NCBI GenBank assembly: GCA_030606485.1
Contig: JAUWGH010000007.1
Span: 150,001 to 182,000 of the forward strand
Source of the DNA: Promethearchaeota archaeon
GTDB taxonomy: Archaea > Asgardarchaeota > Lokiarchaeia > Sigyniarchaeales > SOKP01
Length of the DNA stretch: 32,000 bases
Reading direction: 5' to 3'
The notes beneath the pieces were generated by a model. It was not told the DNA's origin, ran no database searches, and worked only from the letters and a program-made list of their open reading frames with translations. Position numbers and translations under genes: made by a program. The stretch's first letter is position 1. Each line of letters opens with the position of its first letter. Shown here piece after piece: positions 1-27,326 of this stretch.

Positions 1-924
1 TCTAAATAATGCCCTTTCTGCTCCCAATAACTGAATAGTTGAGGCTGGTAGCATGGCTAACTTTTTAATACTCCCGGCAGAAGCCACTAATTTAGCTCCT
101 ATTAATGCTCCTACAAGCGTTGTCAAATTAGGGGTTGCTCCATTCATTAATTCATCTAAATCATTTTCCAATCGCGTTCGATATAACTCAATAGATAGAA
201 TTAAATCGGCATATTTCTGAATATTATCAAGGTCAATCTCCGCACCCATTGAATTTTGAGATTGAGTGATGATCTCGTTCAATGTATAATCTTTAAAAGA
301 AAATTTTTCTTGAAGGTTCTCTTTAGTAAAATTCTCTCGGTTTCCAATAATTGAAATTAATTTACTAAATAACACATGATCCTCAATAATTTTGTCAGTT
401 AATTCCGGGAAATGTAATCCATACCACTCTCTAATACGTGTGCTAAATAAATTTATAGTTTTCTTTAGTAAATCAAGAGTATTTATCATTTGAATAATTA
501 ATATATCATCTTTTCCTGAAGCCCGACTTATTGATTTTTTTGCAAGACTTTCCCCTAATTTTTTCGATCGTTCTCTTATTTGTTCCTCCGTTATTTGAAC
601 TCCATATTTATTAACACTATTTATCAAATTTAATTTAAACGATTGAATAAGAGGACACGGAACCTCATGTTTTGCATTAAAATTAGAATTCTGATTAATT
701 AAATTACTTAAATTTGAATTATCAACAATAAATTCATTATACCCATTTTCTGATAACTCCTCTAATAAATATATAAATTCTTGAGGTAGATTATTTTCTC
801 CTATGAGTCCATAGAATTCAATTATTTTATTAATTTCTCCATTAAAATCTCGAAAATTAATTGGATTCTCTAATTCATCAATTACAAAAATCCCAACTAC
901 AGTATCTGCAATATAACACTTAAT
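1..924 (-). CDS. nop5: Nop5 (Nop56/58) C/D-box methylation guide RNP core protein; 3' end runs off the window; proposed ATT start at 924-922
   Basis: Not in the ORF track; translated by hand. The frame is open from 927 to 1: (I)KCYIADTVVGIFVIDE...IREWYGLHFPEL...GAKLVASAGSIKKLAMLPASTIQLLGAERALFR. REWYxxHFPEL and PASTIQxLGAEKALF are Nop-domain signatures. In-frame TAA at 930-928. Confidence 0.93.
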   Translation of the reverse strand, partial: MKCYIADTVVGIFVIDELENPINFRDFNGEINKIIEFYGLIGENNLPQEFIYLLEELSENGYNEFIVDNSNLSNLINQNSNFNAKHEVPCPLIQSFKLNLINSVNKYGVQITEEQIRERSKKLGESLAKKSISRASGKDDILIIQMINTLDLLKKTINLFSTRIREWYGLHFPELTDKIIEDHVLFSKLISIIGNRENFTKENLQEKFSFKDYTLNEIITQSQNSMGAEIDLDNIQKYADLILSIELYRTRLENDLDELMNGATPNLTTLVGALIGAKLVASAGSIKKLAMLPASTIQLLGAERALFR

Positions 925-932
925 AATTTAGT

Positions 933-938
933 CCCCTT
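933..938 (-). promoter_or_regulatory. Shine-Dalgarno-like AAGGGG upstream of the nop5 ATT codon
   Basis: Minus strand reads AAGGGG ACTAAATT ATT AAG TGT, with 8 nt to the ATT at 924. It is an imperfect match to the archaeal GGAGGTGA consensus. Confidence 0.4.
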
Positions 939-1036
939 ATACTATCTTTAAATAATATAAAAATACTTATTATTATAATAATGAGTTCCCTATTAAAAAT
1001 AAACATATCAACACTTGAAAAATTTTAAAAATAATA

Positions 1037-1954
1037 ATGAGTGAATTTTTTAAAAAAATTGCCGAGAAACCATTCATATTGGCTTCTGGTATTCTTGGTG
1101 TTTCTTATTCTAGTATGAAACGGATATTTGAAGGGGGAGCAGGAGCAGTAGTCACAAAATCAATTGGACCAATTCTAAGAAAGGGATATAAAAATCCTTC
1201 AATTATAGAAATACTGCCTGGAACTTTCATTAATAGCGTTGGTCTTGCAAATCCAGGTATAGATAATTTTATTTCAGAGATTAAAGAATTAAAACAGAAT
1301 AATATAACAACTATTGTCTCAGTTTTTGGGGATTCAATAGAAACCTATACCCAGGTAGCAGTAAAGGCCCAAGATGCGGGTGCAGATGCTATAGAATTAA
1401 ATATTTCTTGCCCTCATGCTGAAATATCGATTATTTGTCAAAATAAACAATTAACATATGAATATGTTGTAGCTGTTAAAAAAGAGTTAAAAATACCATT
1501 AATTGTAAAGTTATCTCCAAATGTAACAGATATAGGCGAGATTGCATTAAGTGCTGAGAAAGCGGGGGCAGACGCTATCACCGCAATTAATACAGTAAAT
1601 GCAATGGTAATTGATATTGAAACTCAGAGACCAATTTTATCACATGGAAGCGGTGGTCTTTCTGGGAAAGCAATCCATCCTATAGCTGTAAAAAAAATGT
1701 TTGATCTTTATAAAATTGTAAGAATTCCTATATTTGGATGTGGTGGAGTATTTACAGGGGAAGACGCAATTGAATTTTTCTTGGCTGGCGCTTCTGCTGT
1801 TCAAATTGGTTCCGCTTTATATCAAGATTACAATGCAATAACGAATATTATTAATAGCGCTAAAAAATATTTAGAAGTTCATAATTATAAATCATTCTCA
1901 GATATAGTTGGAAATGCACATAAATTTGAAACTCAGGAGGCTCCAGATTTTTAA
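1037..1954 (+). CDS. pyrD: Dihydroorotate dehydrogenase family 1B, catalytic subunit
   Basis: Motifs ILASG, ELNISCPH, VKLSPN, AINT, GGLSG, GCGGV, AVQIGSA; coupled to a PyrK-like gene by a TAATG overlap. Confidence 0.95.
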   Translation: MSEFFKKIAEKPFILASGILGVSYSSMKRIFEGGAGAVVTKSIGPILRKGYKNPSIIEILPGTFINSVGLANPGIDNFISEIKELKQNNITTIVSVFGDSIETYTQVAVKAQDAGADAIELNISCPHAEISIICQNKQLTYEYVVAVKKELKIPLIVKLSPNVTDIGEIALSAEKAGADAITAINTVNAMVIDIETQRPILSHGSGGLSGKAIHPIAVKKMFDLYKIVRIPIFGCGGVFTGEDAIEFFLAGASAVQIGSALYQDYNAITNIINSAKKYLEVHNYKSFSDIVGNAHKFETQEAPDF

Positions 1955-2817
1955 TGATTAAAAAACCACGAATGGTTCAAATATCGGAGATTGTCCAAGA
2001 GTCAAAGGATGTTAAAACTTTTACTTTTAATATCAAATCAATCCTCAGTAATTACTCTATTCAATATCAAGATCCCACTCCTGGTGAGTTTTTAATGGTG
2101 TGGGTACCCGGAATAGATGAAATTCCAATGTCCCTATCTGGATTTAACAATAATAAAGATTGGAGTATAACCGTTAAAGAAGTAGGAGAATGTACCGAAA
2201 TGCTCTTCAATTTAGAAAAGAGCGATTTAGTAGGAATACGAGGACCATTTGGTAATGGATTTCAAATTCCTGAATTTAACTTCAATAACCAATTAAACAT
2301 TGTCGTTGGTGGTGGCATTGGAATGGCTCCATTAATACCATTAATTTCTGAATTAATAAAACTAAAAATAAAGATAATTGTAATAGAAGGTGTAAAAAGT
2401 AAGGAAGAAATTATCTTTAAAAAGTATTTAAAAAATTATTTAATAGAAAATGAAACCTTCTATATCTCAACCGATGATGGGAGTTATGGGTATAAAGGAT
2501 TTGCAACAGATCTTTTTAATTCAATTATAGAAAAGGAAATAGAAAAAGGAAATAAAATAAATCAAGTGTATAGTTGCGGACCAGAACAAATGATGTATGA
2601 ATTATTTCATATTTGCGAAAAATTCAATATTTCCTTTCAAGGAAGTCTTGAAAGAATGATGCGATGTGGATTTGGTATGTGTGGATTATGTGTATTAGAT
2701 CCCTCGGGTATTAGAGTTTGTCGGGAAGGTCCAATTCTTGATTCAAAAATTTTAAGAACTTGTACTGATTTTGGTAAATATAATAGAGATTTTAGCGGCA
2801 AAAAAAATACGATATAG
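1954..2817 (+). CDS. pyrK: Dihydroorotate dehydrogenase electron transfer subunit (FAD, [2Fe-2S])
   Basis: PGEFLMVW, EIPMSLS, GIRGPFGNGF, VGGGIGMAP, SCGPEQM, ERMMRCGFGMCGLC...VCREGP; directly downstream of pyrD. Confidence 0.9.
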   Translation: MIKKPRMVQISEIVQESKDVKTFTFNIKSILSNYSIQYQDPTPGEFLMVWVPGIDEIPMSLSGFNNNKDWSITVKEVGECTEMLFNLEKSDLVGIRGPFGNGFQIPEFNFNNQLNIVVGGGIGMAPLIPLISELIKLKIKIIVIEGVKSKEEIIFKKYLKNYLIENETFYISTDDGSYGYKGFATDLFNSIIEKEIEKGNKINQVYSCGPEQMMYELFHICEKFNISFQGSLERMMRCGFGMCGLCVLDPSGIRVCREGPILDSKILRTCTDFGKYNRDFSGKKNTI

Positions 2818-2836
2818 AAGTTAGAGTCATTTTTTA

Positions 2837-4468
2837 ATGCAATCACAAAATTTGGATACTTCATCTGTAACTGAAAAAAAAGTTGCTCGAGAAATAATTG
2901 AATTTTTGTTTAAACATCCAAATTTCAATAAAACAAAAATAACTCAACTTAAAGGTAAAATTGGCAAAAAATATAGATATTTTAAGGTTATAAAGAATGC
3001 AACAATTTTAAAACATGCAAAAGATTCAGAATATGAATTTTTAACTAATCTATTAAAGAGAAGAATAACACGAACTATATCTGGTGTGACTATTGTTGCA
3101 ATTATGACCAAGCCCCTTCCGTGTCCTGGAACATGTATCTATTGTCCAGGTCCAAATTCACAACCTGATAAACCAGTAGCACAATCATACACGGGATTAG
3201 AACCTGCTGCAATGAGGTCCATTCACAACAATTATGATCCTTACCTACAAGTCAAAAGTCGTATAGAAGATTTAGAAGCAATTGGTCATAGTGTAGATAA
3301 AATTGAATTAATTGTTATGGGTGGAACTTTTCTTTCAACAAATATTGAATATCAAAATTTCTTTATTCAAGGAGCATTAGAAGGAGTTATAGATAAAAGA
3401 GTTTCTTCTCTTAATAAAGCAAAAAAAATAGCTGAAAAATCCTCCAGGACATTAGTTGGACTGACTATTGAAACTCGCCCTGATTATTGTACTCCAAAAT
3501 TTATTGATTATATGTTAAATTATAGTGCCACTAGAGTAGAAATTGGAGTTCAAACAGTTTTTGATGACATTTTTAAATTAGTAAATCGCGGACATACCAC
3601 TAAAGAGAGTATTGAGGCAATTAGATGGGCAAAAGATGCAGGTTTAAAAGTAAATACTCACATAATGCCAAATTTACCTGGTTCAAATTATTCTAAAGAC
3701 TTGGAATTGTTTGATATCCTTTTTTCTGATCCAGAATATAAACCTGATCTACTAAAAATTTATCCTTGTTTAGTAGTAAAGGGAACCGAATTATATAATT
3801 GGTGGAGGGAAGGAAAATATCAACCATATGATTTGGAGAGACTTATTGATTTAATTGCAAATGTAAAAAGAAACCTTCCACCATATGTTAGGATACAAAG
3901 AATAATGCGAGATATACCAGCTCAGTTAATAGAGGCTGGTTGTAAAAAGAGTAATTTGAGACAACTTGTTAAAGACAGGTTAAATCAATTAAATAGTAGT
4001 TGTAATTGCATTCGATGTCGTGAATATGGTATATCAAATAGAGATGACGTGATTGATACAAACTCATTTGAAAATATCAAATTATATAGATTGGATTATA
4101 AAGCATCTAAAGGTTCTGAAATTTTTCTTTCCTATGAGAATAAACCAAAAAATTATTTGATTGGATATTTACGCTTAAGAAAACCCTCTGAGTTTGCTCA
4201 TAGAGCTGAATTAAATGATGGAAATACAATGATTGTAAGAGAAATAAAAGTTGTAGGAGAATTAGTTCCAAAAGGCTCCAAACCGGTTAAGGAATCTCAA
4301 ATACAACACCGAGGATTTGGAAAAGAATTGATGGAACATGCTGAAAAAATATCAAGGGAGGAGTTTGATGCCAAAAAATTAGCTGTAATAAGCGGTCTTG
4401 GAGTGAAACGATGGTTTAAGAAAATGGGTTATAATAAAGACGGACTATATGTTTCAATTAAGTTATAA
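2837..4468 (+). CDS. elp3: Elp3 radical SAM/KAT tRNA U34 carboxymethyltransferase
   Basis: RTISGVTIVAIMTKPLPCPGTCIYCPG (CxxxCxxC), GGTF, TIETRPD, RVEIGVQ, LKIYP, RIQRIMRDIP, and the C-terminal acetyl-CoA motif QHRGFGKELM. Confidence 0.94.
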   Translation: MQSQNLDTSSVTEKKVAREIIEFLFKHPNFNKTKITQLKGKIGKKYRYFKVIKNATILKHAKDSEYEFLTNLLKRRITRTISGVTIVAIMTKPLPCPGTCIYCPGPNSQPDKPVAQSYTGLEPAAMRSIHNNYDPYLQVKSRIEDLEAIGHSVDKIELIVMGGTFLSTNIEYQNFFIQGALEGVIDKRVSSLNKAKKIAEKSSRTLVGLTIETRPDYCTPKFIDYMLNYSATRVEIGVQTVFDDIFKLVNRGHTTKESIEAIRWAKDAGLKVNTHIMPNLPGSNYSKDLELFDILFSDPEYKPDLLKIYPCLVVKGTELYNWWREGKYQPYDLERLIDLIANVKRNLPPYVRIQRIMRDIPAQLIEAGCKKSNLRQLVKDRLNQLNSSCNCIRCREYGISNRDDVIDTNSFENIKLYRLDYKASKGSEIFLSYENKPKNYLIGYLRLRKPSEFAHRAELNDGNTMIVREIKVVGELVPKGSKPVKESQIQHRGFGKELMEHAEKISREEFDAKKLAVISGLGVKRWFKKMGYNKDGLYVSIKL

Positions 4469-4544
4469 TAAAATAAAAAGTTAAAATTTAATGAATAAAT
4501 AGAATTTAAAAAAGTTATAAACCTCCAAAATAACTGTTAAAAGA

Positions 4545-6476
4545 TTGAAGATGACAGAATATAATTATAAAGAACTTGGATTAAAATGCGGAATAGAAAT
4601 TCATCAGCAATTAAATTCAACAACTAAGTTATTTTGTAGATGTCCGAGTAAATTACAAGGTAGTAGATCTCCTGATTTTACTACTCTTAGATATATGAGA
4701 CCAGTTCTAGGAGAGATGGGTGAATATGATGAAGCTATGCTTACAGAATATTCAAAGGGAATGACAATTATATATGAAGGCTATAATGATTTGATTTGTA
4801 CTTATGAGCTAGATGAAACCCCTCCATTTGAATGTAATCCAGAAGCTATTGATATTGCCCTAATGATAGCCTCTCTTTTAAAAATGACTGTAATCAATGA
4901 ATTACATATCTCACGCAAAAATTATCTTGATGGAAGCGTTCCATGTGGTTTTCAAAGAACAACAGTAGTTGCAACCGATGGAGAAATAACGTTGGCAAGT
5001 GGAAAAACGATTGGATTAGAATTTGTTTGTTTAGAAGAAGATGCTGCAAGGAAGATCAAAACAGAAAATAAAAATCAATATTTTCGATTAGATAGATTAG
5101 GTATTCCTCTCGTTGAAATTACTACTAAACCTGATATTTATACTCCACAAGAAGCTCGGGACTGTGCAGAACGTATTGGATTACTTCTTTGGGGAACAGG
5201 AAAGGTAAAAACTATCTTAGGCTCCATAAGACAAGACTTAAATATTAGTATTGAAAATGGAAGCCGTATTGAAATTAAAGGAGTTCAAAAATTAGATTGG
5301 TTTACACCACTTATTAATAATGAAATTTCACGACAAATTAAATTAATCGAAATAACGAATAAATTAAAGGAAAAAGGAATAAAACAAGAATATATTAAAG
5401 AAGATATTGTTGATCTCTCTAAAGAATTAAGAGATACTAAGTGTAGTTTTGTTAATAAAGGTATAAAATCAGGTAAAAAACTATTCGGAATAAATTTACC
5501 TGGATTTAATGGGATTTTTGGTCTTGAACTCCAACCAAATAGACGATTTGGAACTGAAGTTGCAAATAAGGTTCAAGAAATCTCTGGACTTAAAGGATTA
5601 ATTCATTCTGATGAAGATTTAAAGGAATATGGATTCTCAGAAAAAGAAATTGATCTCATTAAAAATAAATTAAACACAAAAGATTCTGATTGTTTTGTAT
5701 TAGTTTTAGGAATAGAAAAAACCGTAAAAAAGGCAATGGATGTAATAATAAAAAGAACTAAATTGGCATTTAAAGGAGTTCCTGGTGAGACACGAAGAGC
5801 TTTAGAAGATGGTAATACAGAATTTCTTAGAGAATTACATGGGGGTGCTCGTCTCTACCCTGACACGGATTCTAAAGCAATTATTATCACTGAGGATAAA
5901 ATTAAAAGGATCCAGCAAAATCTACCAAAATATCCATGGGATTTGATGAAAAAATATTCTGAACAATTTAAAATTAAAGAACAATCCATAAAAGACCTTA
6001 TTTTTGAAGGTAAGTTGAAATTATTTGAAGAATTAATTAATATCTATAAAGAAAATCCTACTCTAATAATTACCACCTTATTAGAGACGACAAAAGCATT
6101 GAGAAGGGATGGAATAAACGTGAGTAATCTTACTAATACTCATTTTTCTGATCTATTCACTTCATTAAAAAAGAATGAGATTAGCAAAGAGGCTATTGAG
6201 GACATTCTAATTAAACTTTCTAACTATCCAAATACAAACTTTAAAGAAGTGAAAGAACAATTAAAAATAATCAAGCTTTCAGAAGTTGATTTAATCAAAT
6301 TAATTCAAAAAATCGTCAATAAAGAAGTAGAACTTATTAGAAAAAGTGAAATGAGATCTTTTAGCCCTTTAATGGGAGAAGTGATGAAAGAGGTAAAAGG
6401 AAAAATCGATGGGAAAATTGTAGCTGAAAAATTAAAAAAAGCAATTACAAATAAATTGGAGGAGTTAAAAAAATGA
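4545..6476 (+). CDS. gatE: Glutamyl-tRNA(Gln) amidotransferase subunit E (start TTG 4545 or ATG 4551)
   Basis: GLKCGIEIHQQL, RKNYLDGSVPCGFQRT, LEEDAAR, LDRLGIPLVEI, RQDLNISI, EIKGVQ, GARLYPDTD; includes the AspRS-like insertion. Confidence 0.96.
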   Translation: MKMTEYNYKELGLKCGIEIHQQLNSTTKLFCRCPSKLQGSRSPDFTTLRYMRPVLGEMGEYDEAMLTEYSKGMTIIYEGYNDLICTYELDETPPFECNPEAIDIALMIASLLKMTVINELHISRKNYLDGSVPCGFQRTTVVATDGEITLASGKTIGLEFVCLEEDAARKIKTENKNQYFRLDRLGIPLVEITTKPDIYTPQEARDCAERIGLLLWGTGKVKTILGSIRQDLNISIENGSRIEIKGVQKLDWFTPLINNEISRQIKLIEITNKLKEKGIKQEYIKEDIVDLSKELRDTKCSFVNKGIKSGKKLFGINLPGFNGIFGLELQPNRRFGTEVANKVQEISGLKGLIHSDEDLKEYGFSEKEIDLIKNKLNTKDSDCFVLVLGIEKTVKKAMDVIIKRTKLAFKGVPGETRRALEDGNTEFLRELHGGARLYPDTDSKAIIITEDKIKRIQQNLPKYPWDLMKKYSEQFKIKEQSIKDLIFEGKLKLFEELINIYKENPTLIITTLLETTKALRRDGINVSNLTNTHFSDLFTSLKKNEISKEAIEDILIKLSNYPNTNFKEVKEQLKIIKLSEVDLIKLIQKIVNKEVELIRKSEMRSFSPLMGEVMKEVKGKIDGKIVAEKLKKAITNKLEELKK

Positions 6477-7831
6477 GTAGAAATCAAAATAATGAAAAAT
6501 ACCCAGGATATTCTAAAGACGTAATTGATATTTTAGAAAAATTTGGGGTAAAAATATGGTCGATTATAGAAATTAAAACCAGAACTACTGAATATAAAGG
6601 AATTTTACTCCCCCGGTCCAAGTTTTCAGAACCAGGATTTATTGAAATTAAATTGGATAATGGTTATAATATTGGAGTTCAATTATCAAAAGATATTGAA
6701 ATCAAGATTCTTGGAAAACGTGAAGGAAAATATAATGTACCTGAAAAAAGCTTTCCAATAAATAAAAAATTACCAAATATCAAACTTTTTGGCACCGGTG
6801 GAACTGTCGCTTGTAGACTTGATTATACCACAGGTGCTGTTATTCCTGCCTTCACACCAGGAGAATTATTCAGTGCAGTTCCGGAATTAGCTGATATCTG
6901 TAATTTAGACACTGAAATTGTCTTTGAAATTCTCTCTGAAAATATGAAACCAAGTTCTTGGCAAAAATTAGCAGAAAAGGTAGAAAAGGAAGCAAATTCC
7001 GGCATCGATGGAATTATTATTGGACACGGAACGGATACTATGAGTTTCACATCTGCAGCTTTATCATTTATGCTAAAGGATTTATCCATACCTGTCGTAT
7101 TAGTTGGAAGTCAAAGAAGTAGCGATCGTCCATCTTCAGATTCTGCATTAAATTTAATTAATGCTGTAACTGTCGCAGCTAAATCTGACTTAGCAGAAGT
7201 AGTTGTATGTATGTTGGGTTCCTCATCTCATAAATACGGACTTATACATAGAGGTACACTTGTAAGAAAAATGCACACTTCCTATAGACACACCTTCAGG
7301 ACGATTGGAAATATCCCTCTAGGAAAGGTGGAAAATGGTAAAATAACCATGTTTCAAACCGATTATCATAAAAGAAAAAAATCGGAAACTAAAACACTTT
7401 TAAAATTTGAAGAAAAAATTGGATTAGTCTATTCCTATCCAGGAATGACAAATGATATCATTAATTTTTATATAGATAAAGAATATAGAGGAATAGTGCT
7501 TGCTGGAACTGGTTTAGGTCATACGTCAACATATATATTTGACTCAATTAAAAGAGCAATTGAAGAAGGAATAATAATTTTAATGGTAACTCAATGTCTT
7601 AATGGTTTTGTAGGAATGGATGTTTATTCTACAGGAAGAAATTTAACACAATTAGGAGTAATTCCTGGTAAAAACTTGTTACCTGAAGTTGCTTACGTAA
7701 AACTCGGATGGGTATTAGGACAAACTCAAAATCCTGATGAAATTAAAAGTTTATTGTTAAAAAACATTGCCGGAGAATTTTTAGAAAGAGAGATTCCAAT
7801 CGCCTTTAATTATAATGCCGATGAATTATAA
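6473..7831 (+). CDS. gatD: Glutamyl-tRNA(Gln) amidotransferase subunit D
   Basis: KLDNGYNIG, GTGGTVACRLDYTTGAV, HGTDTM, GSQRSSDRPSSD; ATGA overlap with gatE; SD GGAGG at 6458-6462. Confidence 0.96.
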   Translation: MSRNQNNEKYPGYSKDVIDILEKFGVKIWSIIEIKTRTTEYKGILLPRSKFSEPGFIEIKLDNGYNIGVQLSKDIEIKILGKREGKYNVPEKSFPINKKLPNIKLFGTGGTVACRLDYTTGAVIPAFTPGELFSAVPELADICNLDTEIVFEILSENMKPSSWQKLAEKVEKEANSGIDGIIIGHGTDTMSFTSAALSFMLKDLSIPVVLVGSQRSSDRPSSDSALNLINAVTVAAKSDLAEVVVCMLGSSSHKYGLIHRGTLVRKMHTSYRHTFRTIGNIPLGKVENGKITMFQTDYHKRKKSETKTLLKFEEKIGLVYSYPGMTNDIINFYIDKEYRGIVLAGTGLGHTSTYIFDSIKRAIEEGIIILMVTQCLNGFVGMDVYSTGRNLTQLGVIPGKNLLPEVAYVKLGWVLGQTQNPDEIKSLLLKNIAGEFLEREIPIAFNYNADEL

Positions 7832-7840
7832 AAAAAATTG

Positions 7841-7861
7841 ACATAAAACATAAAACATAAA
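7841..7861. repeat. Short tandem repeat (ACATAAA)x3
   Basis: Three exact 7-nt copies in the gatD-rpl2 spacer. Confidence 0.75.
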
Positions 7862-7931
7862 AATTTTGCACTATTTAACTTTTTTAACTTTTCAAGATAT
7901 TATTAAGAATAAGTAAGCCATGTGAATTTGG

Positions 7932-8651
7932 ATGGGAAAACGAATTTTAGTTCAGCGTAAAGGACGTGGAGGCTTAAATTTTCGAAGCCCTAGCCATAAA
8001 CATATTGGAGCGGTCCATTATCGCAATATCATAGATAGAAATGATGTAAAGAAATTCAAAATTATTGAATTACTTCATTCTCCTGGAAGAGGAGCTCCTG
8101 TTGCAAGAGTGAGATATAATGATGGAAAAGTTCATTTGTTTCTTCCTCCAGAAGGTATTTTTGTGGGTGACGAATTTACCCATGGAGCTGGAGGAAAAAT
8201 TGAAATTGGAAATGTTCTGCCAATTATAGATGCCCCTCTTGGAACTTACATATTCAACATAGAATCTACACCTTTTGATGGAGGAAAATTTGTTAGATCT
8301 TCAGGAACTACTGGAAATGTTGTAGGACGCTCGAAAAATTCAACGGAAGTACAATTCCCTTCAAAGAAAAAGCGCTTATTTAATAATAATTGCTTATGTA
8401 CGATAGGAATCGTTGCGGGTGGTGGTAGAACTGAAAAACCATTTGTGAAAGCTGGAAATAAATACCACTATATCAAACCTAAAGCTAAAAAGTGGCCAAT
8501 TAATCGAGGCGTTGCTATGGCTGCTTGTTCACACCCTCATGGTGGAGGAAGTAAGCAAGGACCTGGAGGTTCAACCACAATTTCTCGTAATGCTCCTCCA
8601 GGAAGGAAAGTTGGATTAATTGCAGCAAGAAGATCTGGTCGTAGGAAATAA
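7932..8651 (+). CDS. rpl2: 50S ribosomal protein uL2 (archaeal L2)
   Basis: MGKRILVQRKGRG, HSPGRGAPVA, DGGKFVRSSG, GGRTEKPFVKAG, RGVAMAACSHPHGGG, PPGRKVGLIAARRSG. Confidence 0.97.
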   Translation: MGKRILVQRKGRGGLNFRSPSHKHIGAVHYRNIIDRNDVKKFKIIELLHSPGRGAPVARVRYNDGKVHLFLPPEGIFVGDEFTHGAGGKIEIGNVLPIIDAPLGTYIFNIESTPFDGGKFVRSSGTTGNVVGRSKNSTEVQFPSKKKRLFNNNCLCTIGIVAGGGRTEKPFVKAGNKYHYIKPKAKKWPINRGVAMAACSHPHGGGSKQGPGGSTTISRNAPPGRKVGLIAARRSGRRK

Positions 8652-8766
8652 AAAATTTAATTCTTAAAATGTATATAAGTTAAAATTTCCTTAATTACTC
8701 TTTAGGAATTTTACTGATTAAAAAAAAAAATTTAAAAAATTTTAAATTTATTAATAATTTAAAAAA

Positions 8767-10476
8767 TTATTGTGCTTCTTTCCGAAGCACCCTCTTTAAT
8801 ACTTTACCGACGGTAGTTAGCGGAAGTTCGTCTCGAAATTCCCATATTTTCGGATTTTCGTATTTCGAGAAATTTTTATTTGCATATTCCTTTATATCTT
8901 CTTTTATTGAATCGGTTAATTGAATCCCTTCTTTAAGTTTAATAACAGCCTTCACTATTTCACTACCTGGTCGGTTTGGATCTTTAATACCAATAATAGC
9001 AGTAAGTTCAATATTTGGATGTTTAACTAGAATATCTTCAAGGCGAACGCTATAGACTTTATAACCACTTACTATTAACATATCTTTTGTGCGGTCTACA
9101 ATAGTAAGATATCCTTCTTCATCCATTACCCCAACATCACCTGTGTGAAACCAACCATCGATAATTGTTTGCGCATTTGCTTCGGGTTTTTCATAATACC
9201 CCCTAGTTACTTGAGGACCTCTGCAGATTATTTCCCCAGGTTCCCCGATCCCAACTTGTTCACCTGTTTCTATATCCACAAGCCGGATATCAGTATCAGA
9301 CACTGGCAATCCAACAGTGCCAATTTTTTTCTTCCCAAGATAAGGATTCATTGTAAGAATGGGTGAAGTTTCTGTCATGCCATATACTTCTAAAACTTTA
9401 TTTCTAGCTGCCATATTTTTTTCATAGTCGATGATGGCTTCTGCCGGAAATGGAGCTGCTCCTGATACATAAATCTTAACATTGTCTAATACTGATTTGG
9501 GGACCGTTTTTAGTTTTGGATTATTCATTATCATCAGATATAATGTTGGCACATTGCAAATAATTGTAGGTTTTTTATCAATCATTTCTTCGATTAAATG
9601 ATTAGTGTCTCTTGGATTTGCAATTAATACTTGGGGATCTGAGACCCATACGGAAACCATACAAAATGCTAATCCCGCTAAATGAAAATAAGGGAATGCA
9701 GATAAAAATATATCCTTACCAACTTCTACCGTTACCCAATTTATTATTTGAGTTATATTCGAAATTATATTAGCATGTGTAAGTTCTGTACCCTTTGGAT
9801 ATCCAGTTGTCCCTCCGGTGTATTGTAAAAGTGCTAAATCATTATTTACGTCAATCGAGACTTCCTTCACATCAATAATTGTATTCATTACATCTTGAAA
9901 TAGGATAACTTTCTTTCCTGGAAAAGGTTTCACTTTGCCTTTTGGAATCTTTTTTAATAATTTACCAAGGAATACCACAAATTTTGAAAGACCCATATAT
10001 TCTGAAATATTCATAGGTATTATAATCTCGAGGTTTGGTACTTTATTTAGGATTTTTTCTAGCACTTTTTCATAAATTGCATCTAAAGTTACAATAACCT
10101 TTGCCTTACTGTCATTTAATTGATATGCGATTTCTTCCTCACTTAAAAGGAACGAACAACCTGAAGCAACTCCACCAGCTAATAACGTTCCAAAGTGTGC
10201 AATTAGATATTGAGGACAATTTGGTAAATTAATAGCAACAACATCACCTTTCTCCAATCCATTTTGTTGCAAAAACGTAGCAAATTTATGAACACACTCT
10301 CGAAGTTCTTTAAAAGTAATTTCTCTCTTCATGAACCAACATGCAGGCTGATCTGGGAATTTTGTCATTCCCTCATCAAAAATCTTGCCAAGGTCTTCAC
10401 TTGAATATTCTAAACTTGGCTTTACATTTGGATCATAACTTTTAATCCAAATCTTCTCGTCATATACGGATGGAAT
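8767..10476 (-). CDS. Long-chain fatty acid-CoA ligase (FadD-like AMP-binding enzyme), 569 aa with proposed ATT start
   Basis: LQYTGGTTGYPKG, YGMTETSP, GWFHTGDVG, VDRTKDMLIVSG, GKVLKR. The frame stays open 36 codons upstream of the track's ATG (10368), giving IPSVYDEKIWIKSYDPNV..., up to TAA at 10479-10477. Confidence 0.9.
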   Translation of the reverse strand: MPSVYDEKIWIKSYDPNVKPSLEYSSEDLGKIFDEGMTKFPDQPACWFMKREITFKELRECVHKFATFLQQNGLEKGDVVAINLPNCPQYLIAHFGTLLAGGVASGCSFLLSEEEIAYQLNDSKAKVIVTLDAIYEKVLEKILNKVPNLEIIIPMNISEYMGLSKFVVFLGKLLKKIPKGKVKPFPGKKVILFQDVMNTIIDVKEVSIDVNNDLALLQYTGGTTGYPKGTELTHANIISNITQIINWVTVEVGKDIFLSAFPYFHLAGLAFCMVSVWVSDPQVLIANPRDTNHLIEEMIDKKPTIICNVPTLYLMIMNNPKLKTVPKSVLDNVKIYVSGAAPFPAEAIIDYEKNMAARNKVLEVYGMTETSPILTMNPYLGKKKIGTVGLPVSDTDIRLVDIETGEQVGIGEPGEIICRGPQVTRGYYEKPEANAQTIIDGWFHTGDVGVMDEEGYLTIVDRTKDMLIVSGYKVYSVRLEDILVKHPNIELTAIIGIKDPNRPGSEIVKAVIKLKEGIQLTDSIKEDIKEYANKNFSKYENPKIWEFRDELPLTTVGKVLKRVLRKEAQ

Positions 10477-10482
10477 TTAAAT

Positions 10483-10487
10483 TCACC
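10483..10487 (-). promoter_or_regulatory. Shine-Dalgarno GGTGA upstream of the acyl-CoA ligase ATT codon
   Basis: Minus strand GGTGA ATTTAA ATT CCA (6-nt spacer). Comparable geometry occurs at rrp4 (GGTGA + 7 nt + GTG), porB (GGAGGTGA + 7 nt + ATG) and rpl2 (GTGA + 6 nt + ATG). Confidence 0.7.
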
Positions 10488-11047
10488 AAAATAATTGATT
10501 TTTTGTAATAAATAAAATAGATGTTTTATGAATATTTAAAATCATTCTTTAAGTAATTAAAAATTGAAAAAATGAATTAGAATTTAAATACTTGGCAATT
10601 AATTAAATTGCATTTTTATTATTTAATAGTATTTTCAGAAGAAAAATATCTTAAATTCTAAATAATTTATCGGCTTAAGATTTGAAATTTAACTAATCAT
10701 TGTTCTGATTTTTAAAAATTTTCCCTTTTCTAAAATTAGTAATTAATTTTTTTTCCTTTCATTTATATAAATAAATACTTATTTTATGAAAAAACATTTA
10801 ATTAAAGAAGATTTATACTTCATTATTAAGAAATATAATACCCCAAAAAGTTATAAGAATTTTTTAAAAATCTCCAATACCTTCGTTCATGATTTTAAAA
10901 TTGGCTATGATATTTAATTAATTAACTTAATGGGTCAAAAATTTAATAAAAATTACTTTCTAAGAATTTAAAAATTTTTTAGAGCAAATAATTAATTAAA
11001 GAAAATTTTAGAATCTCCCAACAAATTTAAAAAGGATAAGTTGAAAA

Positions 11048-14901: not shown

Positions 14902-14918
14902 ATTTATTTCCAATTGAA

Positions 14919-15000
14919 CGCAGATGGAGGGATTTGAACCCCCGAGCGCTTGCGCGCACTGGCTCTCAAGGCCAGCGTCTTACCACTAGGCTACATCTGC
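14919..15000 (-). tRNA. tRNA-Ser(UGA), intronless
   Basis: GCAGAUG UA GCCU AGUGGUA AGAC G CUGGC CUUGAGA GCCAG, long variable arm, GGGGG UUCAAAU CCCUC CAUCUGC G73. One C11-A24 mismatch in the D-stem. Tandem with tRNA-Lys (17-nt spacer). Confidence 0.93.
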
Positions 15001-15244
15001 ATTTACTTAAAATTAATAATAACTTAAATTTATTTTTGTTTTTTTAACTCTTTGATAAAGATATAAGCAGAAAATAATCATAAAATACCTTTTACATAGA
15101 AATAATATTTTTAGAAAAACGATATTGACTAGAGCGGATTTAACCATTTAAGATATAAATTGCTTAAACTTTCCAAATTCCAAAATTTTCTCAAAAATTA
15201 TTTATTCTATCTTTCATTGTTTAATGTGAAAATGGAGGATTACA

Positions 15245-15824: not shown

Positions 15825-15906
15825 CGCAGAGAGGGGGATTTGAACCCCCGTAGGTTTCCCCACTGGATTAGCAGTCCAGCGCCGTACCAGGCTAGGCTAT
15901 CTCTGC
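15825..15906 (-). tRNA. tRNA-Ser(GCU), intronless
   Basis: GCAGAGA UA GCCU AGCCUGGUA CGGC G CUGGA CUGCUAA UCCAG, variable arm UGGGGAAACCUAC, GGGGG UUCAAAU CCCCC UCUCUGC G73. Confidence 0.95.
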
Positions 15907-16015: not shown

Positions 16016-16115
16016 GAGCTTGTGGTCTAGTGGTTACGTGTTATAATTTTATACGCTACAAATGACGCCGCGCTTACACCGCGGAGGTTCGGGAGTTCGA
16101 TCCTCCCCAAGCTCA
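16016..16115 (+). tRNA. tRNA-Val(UAC) with a 26-nt intron at position 20a/21 (D-loop; intron 16036-16061)
   Basis: GAGCUUG UG GUCU AGUGGUU [ACGUGUUAUAAUUUUAUACGCUACAA] AUGAC G CCGCG CUUACAC CGCGG AGGUUC GGGAG UUCGAUC CUCCC CAAGCUC A73. BHB central helix GUGG/CUAC. Confidence 0.92.
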
Positions 16116-16127: not shown

Positions 16128-16907
16128 TTATCTAATACCATTTATCTTTTTAGGACGAATGGCACTTAATTTGGAGTGTTGCAATTTTTTTCCAATATGG
16201 GCGATGATACCAGGGGCATTTGTGTCTTCTTTAAGTATAATAATATTTTCTAAAAATCCCAATTTTTTTATTGTGATTATATCTTGCGAATGTCCTGTTA
16301 TTGCTATTGCTTTTTTAATTTGAGCTCTAGTAGAACCTGATACAAAAACTCTCTCTAATTTATCTAGAAAACAATCATTTATTATTTCTAAGGTATTTTT
16401 TGCAATTAATCCCTTAATCTCTTTCTTACTTTGAGAAATTTCTTCAACTTTTACATGGATTGGAAAGTTTTCAATGAAACCAAACGAGTCTATTATTTTT
16501 CTGAGTGGAATTTTTTTACCTCTGCATAATTGATTTCTAAGAGTGTGAAGATTAATTAAAACATCGATAGTTGGATATCTAATGCTACAATCAATAAAAA
16601 TACCAAAACCAACCTTTCCTACATCAACTAAATATCCTCTTAATACATCTCCTTTGTGAATTTCATTAAATCTAATTGTTGAACCAATCTTTTGTTTTAT
16701 TAAATTTTTGACGAATTCCTCATCAGGTCCTTCAATTTTTATTTCAAGACGGTTATCTTGTTTTCTAAAGCTTACTATTTCAATATGTACATCTAGTTCC
16801 CTAATTTCATTAGATAACATTTGTAAATATTTCTGAAAGAGGGGGTTAAAATCAAAATTTGGATTATAACTATAAATTTTCTCGGCCAAAATAAGTTTTT
16901 GAACCAT
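16128..16907 (-). CDS. Conserved archaeal protein, DUF2110-like (OB/S1-like central domain)
   Basis: EIKIEGPDEEFVKNLI...G...GYLVDVGKVGFGIFIDC...IDSFGFIENFPI pattern, recalled as the archaeal DUF2110 family; not verified by search. Confidence 0.65.
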   Translation of the reverse strand: MVQKLILAEKIYSYNPNFDFNPLFQKYLQMLSNEIRELDVHIEIVSFRKQDNRLEIKIEGPDEEFVKNLIKQKIGSTIRFNEIHKGDVLRGYLVDVGKVGFGIFIDCSIRYPTIDVLINLHTLRNQLCRGKKIPLRKIIDSFGFIENFPIHVKVEEISQSKKEIKGLIAKNTLEIINDCFLDKLERVFVSGSTRAQIKKAIAITGHSQDIITIKKLGFLENIIILKEDTNAPGIIAHIGKKLQHSKLSAIRPKKINGIR

Positions 16908-16979
16908 CTTTAAGTAAAATAAACCTACATTTTTAAAGAAATTTTTGTATAAAATTAATAATAATTTTGAGGAATTAAT

Positions 16980-17357
16980 TTGAACGAATTTAAGTTTATT
17001 GAACTCGTTGATAAATTAAAGGAAGAATACGATGAAATAAAAGAAATCTTTCTCTTAGATTCCTTAGGAAATATTATTTTTAAATCAGAAAATTTTAGTT
17101 TAAATGAAAACGAGGCAAAAGAGATATTATATGCTTGGAAAAACAAAAAATCCTTTTTAAATTTTATGGGAAATCGTTTTGCAATTGTAAAATGGGCTAA
17201 AATTCAGTTAGCTGCAAAAAATATGTATGGAGAAGGTAGTATATGTGGGTCAATCACTCCTGATAATGAGTATTTTATCGCTCACATTCAAGAAAGTAAA
17301 GAATTACTTCTAATCGAATGGTCAATAATAATCAATAAACTTGTTTGGCAAAATTGA
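16980..17357 (+). CDS. Profilin-like protein (divergent Asgard profilin/profilin fold), TTG start
   Basis: 125 aa. Pattern helix-IFLLDSLGNIIFKSENF-helix ending AW-GNRFAIV-LAAKNMYGEGSICG-YFIAHI-C-terminal helix resembles Asgard profilins. SD GAGG at 16969-16972. Confidence 0.6.
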   Translation: MNEFKFIELVDKLKEEYDEIKEIFLLDSLGNIIFKSENFSLNENEAKEILYAWKNKKSFLNFMGNRFAIVKWAKIQLAAKNMYGEGSICGSITPDNEYFIAHIQESKELLLIEWSIIINKLVWQN

Positions 17358-22745: not shown

Positions 22746-22746
22746 G

Positions 22747-22770: not shown

Positions 22771-22799
22771 ATTTTAATTACTTAACTACGTACAAAATT

Positions 22800-23081: not shown

Positions 23082-23083
23082 TA

Positions 23084-23332: not shown

Positions 23333-23364
23333 TTAAGTTATATTAAAAGAAAGAGGAAATTTTT

Positions 23365-23736
23365 ATGAGCATACCCTATGAGAATTTATCTGATGATCTA
23401 AAAAATAAATTGCAAAATTATAATAATCTGGTTCGAACTCTCGAATTTCTTACTCAACAAAGATTTGAATTAGAACGTGGATTGAGGGATGCTGAACTTG
23501 CAATCGGAGAATTAGATAAAACAGAATCTGATAAAGAAGTTTATAAGTCTATTGGGGGCATAATGGTAAAAAGTGAGAGAGACAGACTTTTGGATGAAAA
23601 AAAAAGTCAAAAAGCTTCAATTGAGTTGAAATTAAAAACCATAACCCAACGAGAAGAACGAACAAAAACCCAATTAGAAACATTAAGAATAGCACTAGAA
23701 AAAGATTTTAAGGACCAAGGAATAAGCCAATCTTAA
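23365..23736 (+). CDS. pfdB: Prefoldin subunit beta
   Basis: Coiled coil-VYKSIGGIMVK-coiled coil; conserved operon position. Confidence 0.93.
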   Translation: MSIPYENLSDDLKNKLQNYNNLVRTLEFLTQQRFELERGLRDAELAIGELDKTESDKEVYKSIGGIMVKSERDRLLDEKKSQKASIELKLKTITQREERTKTQLETLRIALEKDFKDQGISQS

Positions 23737-23746
23737 ATTAACAATT

Positions 23747-24778
23747 ATGAATTCTAACTTAAAAAAAAAAATAACGAATATAATTTCATTTATCGAAGGA
23801 AAAAATATAATCATATCCACCCATAGTTTGGCAGATGTAGACGGCATAGCCTCTGCATTTGGTTTAAAACTTTTTTTAAGTAAAATATTGAAACATTCAC
23901 TTATAGATTTAAGATTTCCAAAATGCACCAAGTATAATAAACAAATAATTAAAATAATTGAATCTATATGTGAATGTAAAATTTTAAATACATCTTCTAA
24001 TATTGATTTCAAACCAGATATTTTACTCATTACTGATACAAATAATTATAATCAAATTAGATTTAAAGAATTAAATCTTAAATATCGGGACATTAAATCA
24101 AATTTAATATACATTGATCATCACAGAAAAGGAAATAATTTAAAAAATAAACCTCTTGACAAATACAATATCATCATGGATAATTACACTTCTGCCAGTG
24201 AGATAATTCTTGACATTCTCAGACTTTTTAATATCAAATTGAATAAATGCATTTTACATTTATTTGCAGCGGCTATTCTTACAGATACAGGTAATTTTAA
24301 ATATGCAACTAATGAAACCTTTAGTCGATTTAACTTTCTTCTTCAAAAAGGATTAGATTATAAAATAATCCTAGGTATCCTTAAGATGGAAGTTGATGTT
24401 TCTGAAAAAATCGCAATAATTAAGGGGAGTCAAAGAAGTAAATTAATTCGGTATGGAGACTGGTTAGTATGCAAAACTCAAGTTAGTAATTATGAATCAA
24501 GTGTGGCTACATCGCTAATAAATTTAGGATATGATATCGTATTAGTAATTTCTCCTTCAAAAAAAAGCGATGCGTTTAGAATAACTTCAAGGGCAAATCA
24601 AAAAGTAATAAATGAAACTGGGATTCATCTTGGAGAACTCTTTAACGAAATTTCCGAAATTAGCCAAGGCAACGGAGGAGGACATAATGGAGCTGCATCC
24701 CACGTTGGAAAAATAAAACTTGAATCTACTATAGAAAAAATTTTTAGTTATTTTGAGAAAAAATTAATAGAAAAATAA
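23747..24778 (+). CDS. DHH/DHHA1 phosphoesterase (NrnA-like)
   Basis: THSLADVDG, ITD, IDHH, ILTDTGNF, GGGHNGAA. Confidence 0.9.
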   Translation: MNSNLKKKITNIISFIEGKNIIISTHSLADVDGIASAFGLKLFLSKILKHSLIDLRFPKCTKYNKQIIKIIESICECKILNTSSNIDFKPDILLITDTNNYNQIRFKELNLKYRDIKSNLIYIDHHRKGNNLKNKPLDKYNIIMDNYTSASEIILDILRLFNIKLNKCILHLFAAAILTDTGNFKYATNETFSRFNFLLQKGLDYKIILGILKMEVDVSEKIAIIKGSQRSKLIRYGDWLVCKTQVSNYESSVATSLINLGYDIVLVISPSKKSDAFRITSRANQKVINETGIHLGELFNEISEISQGNGGGHNGAASHVGKIKLESTIEKIFSYFEKKLIEK

Positions 24779-24820
24779 TCTTAGAAATATTTATCATAAC
24801 TCACAATAAAAGTTTTTACC

Positions 24821-25663
24821 TTGAATTTAATTAAATTTGAAGATTTCAGTTTTAAATACGACCAAGCACAAGATTTCGTATTGAAAGATATTAAATTAAA
24901 CATAGAGTCAGGTAAATTCATTTTATTGTGTGGAATTACAGGCTCGGGAAAAACAAGTTTAGTCCGAGCAATGAATGGTTTGATTCCACAATTTTATCAC
25001 GGTGAAATAAAAGGGGATGTATTTGTAAAAGGAAAAAATACTAAAAATGTTCCCACATCAACATTATCAAGAGATGTAGGTTTAGTATTTCAAAATCCTG
25101 AGAATCAATTAATAGCTATGAATGTAGAACGAGAAATTGCGTTTGGGCCTGAAAATATTGGTATTCCTTGGGATGAAATGGATTCGAGAATTAAAGAATG
25201 TATTAAAATTACAGATATTGAACATCTTAGAAAAAAAGCACCATTTGAAATAAGTGGTGGAGAACAACAGAGGGTTGCGATTGCTTCAATACTCGCATTA
25301 CAGCCAGAGATTATAATTTTTGATGAACCAACTTCACTTCTAGACCCAAAAAGTGCAATTCAAATTCTTAATTTATTGAAAAAGATCCTTCTTGAAAAAA
25401 AAATATCTACAATAATAGTTATTGAACATAGACTGGATATTGTACTTCCTTTAGCCGATGAAGTTATATTGATTGACAAAGGACGAATTATTGAGCATGG
25501 TGAAGCCCATTATGTGATAAATGGAGAAAAATTTTTAAATTCAGGAGTTAATATTCCAAAATGTGTTTCAGTTTTTCAAAAATTAATGAATCAGAATATA
25601 TTTACCGGTAAATTGCCAATTTCAATCGAAGAAACTAAAAATTTGATAAATTCTATAAAATAG
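24821..25663 (+). CDS. ecfA1: ECF transporter ATPase A1 (TTG start)
   Basis: GITGSGKTS, FQNPENQL, ISGGEQQR, FDEPTSLLD, IEHRL. Confidence 0.9.
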   Translation: MNLIKFEDFSFKYDQAQDFVLKDIKLNIESGKFILLCGITGSGKTSLVRAMNGLIPQFYHGEIKGDVFVKGKNTKNVPTSTLSRDVGLVFQNPENQLIAMNVEREIAFGPENIGIPWDEMDSRIKECIKITDIEHLRKKAPFEISGGEQQRVAIASILALQPEIIIFDEPTSLLDPKSAIQILNLLKKILLEKKISTIIVIEHRLDIVLPLADEVILIDKGRIIEHGEAHYVINGEKFLNSGVNIPKCVSVFQKLMNQNIFTGKLPISIEETKNLINSIK

Positions 25664-25668
25664 ACTGG

Positions 25669-26559
25669 ATGGAGAATGATAATATGGAAAAAAAACTTGA
25701 AAACCTTCAAATCTTAGTCAATCATTTGACTTATCATTATCCCGATGGGACTATTGCATTAAAAGGAATCAACCTTAATATTTACTCAGGAGAAATTGTA
25801 GGAATAATGGGTAAAAATGGAGCAGGTAAATCTACCTTAATAAAAACATTCAATGGTTTATTGAAACCCACAACTGGGACTGTTTATATAGAAAATGATG
25901 AAGTTAATAATGTTTTAATGTCAAAATTAACGAGAAAAGTAGGTATCGTATTTCAAAATCCCGATCTTCAATTGTTTGCTAATACCGTTGAAGATGAGAT
26001 TAAATTTTCACTAAAAAATCTAAATTTTTCAAAAACTGAGCTTGAAAACCAAATTTATTTAACTCTAGAAAAATTTAAACTAAAAAAATTTCAAAACCGG
26101 ACTCCTTTTACTTTATCTGGTGGGGAAAAAAAAAGATTGGCTATTGCCTCAATAATGTGTAGAAATCCCGAAATTATTGTGTTTGATGAGCCCACAATTG
26201 GTCAAGATGCAGAGGGAGTAGAATTCATAAAAAATTTGATAAAAGAAAAACATGCTGAAGGAAAAACAATAATAATTGTTACCCATGATATAGAATTTGC
26301 TATAGATAATATACCAAGAACAATTCTGATGGCTGATGGTCTTATTGTAGCTGATGGCCCAACAAACAAAATTCTAAGTCAAGATCAAATTCTAAATATT
26401 GGTTCTTTAATTTCACCCCAATTAATTAAACTATCAAAATTTTTAATAGATTTAAAGCTAAAGGTCCCTGAGGACGTATATATAAAAGAAAACATGGTCC
26501 AATTCTTAGGTTCATATTTTAAAGATAAAATGGGAATTACTGAAGGAGGGAAACCATAA
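25669..26559 (+). CDS. ecfA2: ECF transporter ATPase A2
   Basis: GKNGAGKST, FQNPDLQLF, LSGGEKKR, FDEPTIGQD, VTHD. Confidence 0.9.
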   Translation: MENDNMEKKLENLQILVNHLTYHYPDGTIALKGINLNIYSGEIVGIMGKNGAGKSTLIKTFNGLLKPTTGTVYIENDEVNNVLMSKLTRKVGIVFQNPDLQLFANTVEDEIKFSLKNLNFSKTELENQIYLTLEKFKLKKFQNRTPFTLSGGEKKRLAIASIMCRNPEIIVFDEPTIGQDAEGVEFIKNLIKEKHAEGKTIIIVTHDIEFAIDNIPRTILMADGLIVADGPTNKILSQDQILNIGSLISPQLIKLSKFLIDLKLKVPEDVYIKENMVQFLGSYFKDKMGITEGGKP

Positions 26560-27326
26560 TATCCTTTGAATTCATGGAAGCTTTCAAATTTATTCAAATG
26601 AAGACAATTATTCATAGTTTAGACCCTAGAACTAAGCTTCTACTAGCAATCATTTATAGTATTCTTGCAATTATATTTGAAGAAATTTTCATTCTCTTTT
26701 TTGTTTTTCTTTCATTATTTCCATTCATTCTCGCTGGACAATTATTCAAAAAATGGATTAAAAGTATTCGGGGAATGACATTCTTATTTTTATTACTAAT
26801 TATTTTCAATACACTTTTTAGCACATTTTCTAAATCCATATCAATGATATTACGTATAATGATTATGGTAAGTTCATTTTCATTATTCTTTTTAACAGTT
26901 CATCCTGACGATCTCATGCTTTCTCTTCTTTCTCTTAAAGTACCTTACAATATTGCGTTTTCATTTTCATTATCTTTTAGATTTGTTCCAACAATTGCAA
27001 TTGAAGCCCAAAATATTATTGATGCACAAAAAAGTAGGGGATATGAAATGGAACAAGGAGGCTTAATATCTCAAGCAAAGAATTTAATACCTTTATTAAT
27101 TCCATTAATTGTTTGTTCCATGAAAAGGGCATTTCACATTGCGGAAGCTTTAGACTCCAGAGCTTTCGGAAGCACTAAAAATAGAACCTATTATTATTCA
27201 ATTTCATATACAAAAAAAGATTGGTTAATAACAGTAATTCTAATCATATTCTTTATCTTTGGAATTATTGTAAAAATATTCCCAGATCTATTACCTAATT
27301 GGTTTTATTGGAGATTTCCAGTCTAA
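26559..27326 (+). CDS. ecfT: ECF transporter transmembrane component T (first ATG 26574; proposed ATA start 26559)
   Basis: IHSLDPRTKL, RFVPTIAIEAQNIIDAQKSRG, IAEALDSRAF. Embedded GGAGG at 26545-26549 precedes in-frame ATA codons at 26556 and 26559. Confidence 0.9.
   Translation: MSFEFMEAFKFIQMKTIIHSLDPRTKLLLAIIYSILAIIFEEIFILFFVFLSLFPFILAGQLFKKWIKSIRGMTFLFLLLIIFNTLFSTFSKSISMILRIMIMVSSFSLFFLTVHPDDLMLSLLSLKVPYNIAFSFSLSFRFVPTIAIEAQNIIDAQKSRGYEMEQGGLISQAKNLIPLLIPLIVCSMKRAFHIAEALDSRAFGSTKNRTYYYSISYTKKDWLITVILIIFFIFGIIVKIFPDLLPNWFYWRFPV

Follow-up and report, generated by a model that had tools for sequence, protein, structure and literature searches.

Candidate AUU and AUA translation starts behind Shine-Dalgarno motifs in an Asgard archaeal lineage

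The genome G000 (3.75 Mb, 13 contigs, ~30% GC) contains, within a stretch of 32,000 nucleotides (C6:150001-182000, in the following the window), the genes nop5 and ecfT and a gene for an acyl-CoA ligase, in which an ATT or ATA codon lies at the position homologous to the initiator methionine (nop5, ecfT) or at the start of the conserved N-terminus (ligase). We consider it likely, with a probability of about 0.8, that these three genes and ~3-6% of the G000 genes start at AUU or AUA; a few further genes probably start at CUG. This reading builds on the codons themselves, their spacing to a Shine-Dalgarno (SD) motif, their homology to Met1, the conservation of the frames behind them and a genome-wide enrichment. 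The closest public proteins to the Nop5 of G000 are labelled Promethearchaeota (Asgard archaea), and cold-seep and marine-sediment metagenomes from eight studies contain G000 DNA. Among the genomes compared here, G001 and G004 belong to the same genus as G000, G020 and G014 represent two other genera of the family, G032 and G038 are members of a sister family, and G033 has 54% GC.

Start regions of nop5, the acyl-CoA ligase gene and ecfT

For the three genes, orthologous loci from up to 40 relatives were compared, and each frame was read from its upstream stop. The gene nop5 (aNOP56/Nop5; 1..924, minus strand) lies in the window with its 5' part and runs off the left edge. Its product matches the Pfam families PF21572 (the N-domain, from residue 3 of the stop-to-stop frame) and PF01798. 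The initiation region (922..938, minus strand) consists of the SD-like motif AAGGGGA (938-932), an in-frame TAA (930-928) and two consecutive ATT codons (927-925 and 924-922), the second of which is the proposed start. The frame after the stop reads ATT ATT AAG TGT TAT ATT GCA GAT and contains no ATG, GTG or TTG for 100 codons, the first being the TTG at 627. At the position of MKCYI, the codon in 19 orthologues from the family's other genera is ATG (17), GTG (1) or TTG (1). Since the ATG of sister genera aligns with ATT 924-922, the second ATT is the homologue of Met1. All four genomes of the genus, G000 included, share TAA ATT ATT AAG TGT TAT at this site. The spacer from position 932, the equivalent of the end of GGTGA, to ATT 924 is 7 nucleotides (nt) long, and the neighbouring ATT 927 is too close to the SD. 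The start-less stretch is conserved as protein, sharing 37 of 99 residues with another genus and showing synonymous changes within its own; the N-terminus predicted from the ATT start is M/I-KCYIADTVVGIF... Gene finders ignore starts at ATH (ATT, ATA or ATC) and hence cut off the N-termini. Truncated annotations had been predicted from the sequence alone, and the public Nop5 calls of the genus bear this out: they begin with VVGIF.., MVNPINF.. or MSNNVKKYG.., start late (by 9, ~20 or ~100 residues) and are without a match to the N-terminal domain, while relatives that are 65% identical begin with MKCYIADT.

The gene for the acyl-CoA ligase (AMP-binding, FadD-like; PF00501/PF13193) extends over 8767..10476 on the minus strand, with ATT 10476-10474 as proposed start. 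In its initiation region (10474..10487, minus strand), GGTGA (10487-10483) is followed by the 6-nt spacer ATTTAA, which includes an in-frame TAA (10479-10477), and then by ATT, CCA and TCC. The first canonical codon is ATG 10368, located 36 codons downstream. A conserved N-terminus (..KIWIKSYD..), common to orthologues and paralogues, is encoded upstream of this ATG; the ATT sits at its start, where orthologues have ATG, GTG or ATA, and would yield the N-terminus M/I-PSVYDEK... Three other same-genus genomes have GGTGA ATT GAA ATT CCA at this site. With the change from GAA to TAA in the spacer of G000, the sole ATT left is the one six bases behind the SD. In two other genera, the orthologues show AGTGA/AGGTGA-N6-ATA and have no canonical codon for 31-40 codons, and a paralogue in G004, a fifth genome of the genus, shows AGGTGA-N5-ATT. 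The set of ligase paralogues is large: G000 has 20 matches and most relatives have 10-29, and several paralogues in different genera are independently without canonical starts.

The third gene, ecfT (26559..27326, plus strand; PF02361), encodes the T component of an ECF transporter (CbiQ family). Upstream of it, ecfA2 (25669..26559, plus strand; PF00005) encodes an ABC ATPase; its 3' end holds the ecfT SD. The initiation region of ecfT (26545..26561, plus strand) comprises GGAGG (26545-26549), the ecfA2 stop TAA (26557-26559) and the proposed start ATA 26559-26561, which overlaps the stop by one base (TAATA); an alternative start is ATG 26574. TAATG overlaps of the same geometry occur at the window positions 1954, 21067, 21906 and 28592. 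A sequence-only reading of the window had described the three genes and these four overlaps, and all of them are present as it stated. The ecfT junction reads GGAGG GAAACC ATA ATA TCC. Its first ATA (26556-26558) is too close to the SD; the second is separated by 6 nt in the anti-SD register and by 9 nt from GGAGG, inside the range of 9-11 nt commonest at ATG starts. Codons ATA TCC TTT GAA TTC of ecfT align with ATG TCx TTA GAA TTT (MSLEF) of relatives, and the N-terminus predicted from the ATA is M/I-SFEFMEAFK... Within the genus, the codon at this position is ATA in three genomes, ATG in one and ATT in one. The genome with ATT, G004, has no canonical codon in ecfT for 58 codons; conserved coding sequence upstream of every canonical ecfT start was found in G004 and G010 only. 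One genome of another genus also has an ATA, behind GGAGGG.

The genes could instead start at the next canonical codon (TTG 627 in nop5, ATG 10368 in the ligase gene, ATG 26574 in ecfT), the upstream frame being an untranslated leader. Gene finders indeed call downstream starts, and in ecfT the ATG 26574 keeps MEAFKF..HSLDPR at a cost of only five residues. However, a downstream start would strip Nop5 of a whole N-terminal domain of 100 residues that is conserved as protein, and would cost the ligase 36 residues with the conserved KIWxKSYD motif. Neither does it fit the ecfT of G004 with its 58 codons, and comparable start-less frames in the sister family are unconserved. We consider this explanation improbable. 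Still smaller is the likelihood of a canonical start further upstream or in another frame, followed by frameshifting, stop read-through or coupling of termination and reinitiation. The ligase SD (TTGGTGA) contains a TTG and a GTG in the +1 frame, and the overlap between the ecfT ATA and the ecfA2 stop could help coupling. Yet the +1 open reading frame (ORF) of the ligase is unconserved, with 8 codons here and 2 in the sister species; nop5 has a second in-frame stop upstream (939-937) and no ATG, GTG or TTG in the ~80 nt read upstream; and nop5 and the ligase gene are the first genes adjoining divergent intergenic regions.

The window stems from a metagenome-assembled genome, and the ATT and ATA codons might have arisen as errors of consensus or assembly, or reflect mutations of a single strain in a degenerate bin (pseudogenes). 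Contigs from four other studies were compared over the window positions 800-10700, with ecfT outside that span. Contigs of another study showed 0 differences over 800-1295 (the nop5 site) and over 7872-10700 (the ligase site, on one contig), and no variant among those listed for four runs from four studies affected 922-930. The nop5 and ligase codons recur in three other species-level genomes, with four counted for ecfT. For nop5 and the ligase gene, the identity of the contigs together with these genomes rules out an artefact of assembly, and independent assemblies agree at both sites. The reliability of the ecfT codon is given by the other same-genus genomes only. As the frames are also full length and conserved, and nop5 is essential, we assign a negligible probability to errors or pseudogenes.

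Three other ORFs of the window with 20-36 start-less codons (16128-17015, 29302-29838 and 29973-30971, all minus strand) were rejected as candidates, since their starts are ordinary ATG codons preceded by non-coding or SD sequence. This leaves ~3 ATH starts among ~34 window genes; of the earlier tally of 3 affected genes among 36 coding sequences, the three genes stand and the total is corrected to ~34. In the gene at 23726-24778 (plus strand), the first ATG of G001 aligns with an ATT in G000, where ATG follows one codon later. The window also contains two tRNA-Ser genes (TGA and GCT; 14918-15001 and 15825-15906, both minus strand) and a third Infernal tRNA match of ~100 nt (16016-16115, plus strand) that probably contains an intron.

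Genome-wide distribution of start-less genes

The 16S rRNA of G000 has the 3' end ..GGATCACCTCCT. Unambiguous ATG starts show an enrichment of the motif GGAGGTGAT in their upstream sequence, where GGTGA ends 6-7 nt and GGAGG ends 9-11 nt ahead of the ATG. In the anti-SD register, the spacer measures 6-7 nt at all three ATH sites of the window, and its mode at ATG starts is 6-8. Across G000, 2,735 stop-to-stop ORFs that do not overlap and have a length of 150 codons or more were searched for in-frame codons that precede the first ATG, GTG or TTG by at least 4 codons and follow a strict 5-mer SD at register 5-9. Such an SD was present before 47 of 2,220 pre-start ATT, ATA or ATC codons, versus 94 of 12,715 other codons (odds ratio (OR) 2.9, p 3e-8); AT-rich control codons carried it in 27 of 5,787 cases. 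With 4-mer SD cores, the ATH excess corresponds to ~52 genes. The SD share of first ATG codons is 19%. In a same-genus genome, the SD/ATH enrichment reached an OR of 7.2 (p 8e-5). Two other genera of the family showed it weakly; G038 and G033 did not show it (OR 0.8).

CTG too looks like a used start codon in G000, probably in C5:113667-114614 (minus strand) and C10:786593-788347 (plus strand), for example. Upstream in-frame CTG codons have a correctly spaced SD in 9 of 52 cases (17%), near the share for first ATG codons, and a ParA/MinD-like gene shows GAGGTG-N8-CTG and has conserved sequence before its first ATG. The ATH starts are often preceded by AAA (AAA ATT/AAA ATA) and followed by a codon starting with A, as at 10474-10487 in the window and at C6:136179, C7:82924 and C8:312923. 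The AAA matches the A-rich context of canonical starts at -3 to -1.

Orthologues were used to anchor the start regions. Stop-to-stop ORFs from ~400 kb of each of six relatives were aligned to the G000 ORFs, and conserved aligned residues upstream of the first canonical codon (lenient, at least 8 residues and a score of at least 15; strict, at least 12 residues and a score of at least 35) identified genes that need a non-canonical start. Both alignments had to reach the N-terminal region, a requirement by which gene fragments (two 'cases' in G032 and one in G014) were dropped. A non-canonical start was needed in 28 (lenient) or 15 (strict) of 489 genes in G000, in 8-12 of 191 in G020 and in 3 of 187 in G014. 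The numbers for the sister family were 0 of 77 (G032) and 1-2 of 85 (G038), and for G033 0-2 of 39. In the sister family, homology begins at or after the first canonical codon of long start-less frames, i.e. these frames are unconserved. Several long start-less ORFs in G032 (C1:1000001-1400000) are gene fragments; the ORF 130912-131388 of the joined piece is a reverse-transcriptase-like fragment, whose match in an 893-aa protein of G000 covers residues 115-274.

Further cases in G000 are an SDR gene with GGTGA-N6-ATA, an SMC-like gene whose first 100 codons include no canonical start, and a KH-like gene in which AGGT-N8-ATT is combined with 66 start-less codons. By a hand count, an SD is present in ~14 of the 18 best orthologue-supported cases, versus the 19% of first ATGs. 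The SD/codon enrichment and the orthologue anchoring both point to ~3-6% of the genes, which supports the routine initiation at ATH codons proposed from the window alone. G020 has a set of its own, including GGGTGA-N6-ATT where G000 has ATG, and shares other cases with G000; the trait thus turns over gene by gene.

Protein alignment within the genus was also tried as an orthologue test and flagged 71-76 of 316 genes. At ~90% nt identity non-coding leaders align too, so that this test was uninformative and a codon-level comparison took its place. Among 311 orthologue pairs of G000 and G001, first-ATG codons change only to TTG, GTG, ATT, ATA or CTG, whereas internal ATG codons change also to ACG, AAG, TTA and others. 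Two genes with ATG in G001 and ATT in G000 have no canonical codon for 30 and 53 codons. A roadblock gene is an example of ATT in G000 where G001 has ATG.

The initiation at ATH codons may be real and at the same time general to AT-rich, SD-using archaea, or a by-product of drift under weak selection, the machinery being unchanged. This is the alternative to which we give most weight, although we regard it as rather unlikely. It is favoured by the small control samples with their marginal contrast, by a distribution of start-less frame lengths that is the same in both families and by one plausible ATA/CTG case in the sister family (G038). A conserved aIF1 loop and a normal initiator tRNA (see below) also fit unchanged machinery, and a rare ATT start is known from a Heimdall-group Asgard archaeon (PMC13394414), as are near-cognate sites from Haloferax (PMC7261190). 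On the other side, a non-canonical start was needed in 8 of 77 genes of G000 versus 0 of 77 in G032 when the same gene pairs were compared, and in 5 of 85 versus 2 of 85 in the comparison with G038; moreover, G038 and G033 do not show the SD/ATH enrichment. The sequence-only reading had suggested a relaxed start rule specific to this lineage. Its first part is in agreement with the ATH use in the genera of the family, while its specificity depends on small controls with p ~0.03-0.1.

Initiator tRNA, aIF1 and a proposed mechanism

One initiator-like tRNA gene was found in G000 (C6:44349-44448, minus strand). It has A1:U72, the pairs G29-31:C39-41 (GGG/CCC stem), the anticodon CAT and an intron of ~21 nt, which is located just 3' of the anticodon loop and not clearly at the canonical position 37/38. 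A second initiator-like tRNA was not found in a pattern search (GGG-YU-NAU-R-CCC, with and without intron), modifications being unreadable from DNA. The tRNA census is incomplete: ARAGORN reported 15-38 tRNAs with or without introns, Infernal 33, and ARAGORN misses most G000 tRNAs presumably because of their introns. A second initiator tRNA, or a modified anticodon comparable to the mitochondrial f5C34, could read AUA and AUU as cognate codons. Mitochondria start at AUA and AUU with a modified tRNA-Met, and the many introns and the 33 Infernal matches leave room in the census here, but the pattern search recovered only the initiator-type tRNA with CAU. Such a decoding change has, in our estimation, a low probability.

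The factor aIF1 is encoded in a single copy (C6:14364-14765, plus strand), with GTG as the first canonical codon available. Its RKWGR loop is conserved across all families. The one feature peculiar to the genus is a basic tail at the C-terminus of aIF1 (..RNVVKQKYKKRR), which is missing from the sister family and from most of the family's other genera. Altered fidelity of aIF1, aIF1A or aIF2, or a modification of the initiator tRNA, had been suggested as a possible cause of the relaxed start rule; no such cause was found in the sequences of aIF1 and the initiator tRNA, in which the aIF1 loop is conserved and the sole initiator-like tRNA found has a normal CAU.

With CAU as the sole initiator-like anticodon, near-cognate pairing is likely and constitutes the simplest model. 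The SD, complementary to the 16S 3' end (..GGAUCACCUCCU), would place the near-cognate codon in the P site at the register of 6-7 nt of canonical starts. There, the single standard initiator tRNA would pair with the first two bases and tolerate a mismatch at the third position. In a lineage of ~30% GC, changes from ATG to ATA or ATT at SD-led starts would be tolerated, and such starts would then persist and turn over between species. We infer that ribosomes initiate at the ATH codons and insert methionine, and that the start stringency of the lineage is relaxed. The trait appears to occur in several genera of the family and to be rarer in the sister family. For a whole Asgard family with relaxed stringency, in which AUU, AUA, AUC and probably CUG would be regular starts behind a strong SD in ~100-200 genes per genome and would turn over with AUG, we see about even odds.

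Several observations weigh against initiation at SD-led ATH codons as a trait of this lineage. Some orthologue-supported cases are without any SD, e.g. the roadblock gene, which has a TATA-like sequence close upstream. A TATA-like sequence is also located 20-35 nt upstream of nop5 and could direct transcription to begin at the SD-like motif or downstream of it, which makes the role of the SD uncertain there. Given these sequences, it is possible that some cases such as nop5 and the roadblock gene are leaderless. In ecfT of G000, the in-frame ATG five codons downstream is a possible start and would give a viable N-terminus. The contrast between the family and the sister family is marginal (Fisher p 0.04-0.1; paired sign test p 0.03-0.07), and the share of ORFs with at least 30 start-less codons is the same in both; this share is dominated by leaders that are open by chance and was rejected as a discriminator. 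Finally, aIF1 showed no sequence sign of relaxed fidelity in the comparison across families.

If 3-6% of the genes use starts that gene finders ignore, their deposited proteins are missing strands at the N-terminus or entire domains. Asgard proteomes are searched for eukaryotic signature proteins and serve structure prediction and biochemistry; truncation was seen here for Nop5, and one published case concerns a tubulin. If the reading is true, a few percent of the published Asgard proteins, eukaryotic signature proteins included, would be truncated at the N-terminus. For annotation in this lineage, the remedy would be to permit ATH and CTG starts behind a strong SD. Frequent AUH initiation with eukaryote-type factors would offer a natural system for the stringency of aIF1 and aIF2 versus SD strength, in which the evolution of start-codon choice under AT mutation pressure could be studied.

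Comparison with known near-cognate initiation

Near-cognate starts in bacteria include those of infC and pcnB in Escherichia coli, and ATT, ATC and ATA are listed as starts in NCBI table 11. The start of infC is autoregulatory through IF3. Similar to the bacterial AUU, AUA and AUC starts, the candidates in G000 would combine an SD-led near-cognate codon with an ordinary initiator tRNA and are missed by gene callers. In contrast to the bacterial cases, which concern a handful of genes per genome, diverse genes, perhaps 100 or more per genome, would be affected here in an archaeon with aIF1, aIF1A and aIF2. An autoregulation of the infC type was not encountered among the affected genes, which encode Nop5, the acyl-CoA ligase, EcfT, SMC-like, SDR and roadblock proteins and others. 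Mitochondria use AUA, AUU and AUC starts without an SD, read AUA as methionine and have a modified C34. The likeness to G000 would lie in routine AUH starts in an AT-rich genome with a single initiator of the tRNA-Met type; of SD loss, a code change of AUA to methionine or a modified C34 there is no evidence in G000, C34 modification being unreadable from DNA.

In Deinococcus deserti, non-canonical starts were shown by N-terminal proteomics (PMC2830850). When annotated starts were surveyed in 36 groups of prokaryotes, one switch from AUG to AUU was counted for 61,358 AUG starts, versus 476 to GUG or UUG (PMC5622118). Unlike in this survey, switches between ATG and ATH in the pair G000/G001 are about as common as those between ATG and GTG or TTG. 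Reviews of archaeal initiation, whether on leaderless or SD-led mRNAs, name only AUG, GUG and UUG (PMC7531240), and complexes on codons other than AUG are reported to be destabilised by aIF1 (PMC6237735). The candidate starts share the SD motif, the spacing and the A-rich -3 to -1 context with canonical archaeal initiation and differ from it by AUU or AUA at the start position.

The closest precedent is a single 'rare ATT start', reported in 2026 for AtubA of a Kariarchaeaceae (Heimdall-group) Asgard archaeon (PMC13394414). As in our genes, the deposited protein is too short, and an upstream ATT with a ribosome-binding site at a plausible distance restores the conserved N-terminus. That case concerns one gene and a remark in the methods, whereas the pattern described here was tested genome-wide and across genera of another Asgard family. 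In Haloferax, ribosome profiling found ~30% of the putative alternative initiation sites to be near-cognate, and these were set aside (PMC7261190). Near-cognate starts as such, and one Asgard ATT case, were thus known; to these, the present comparison of sequences adds a genome-wide, multi-genus test in an Asgard family, which suggests that starts of this kind may be a regular component of its genomes.

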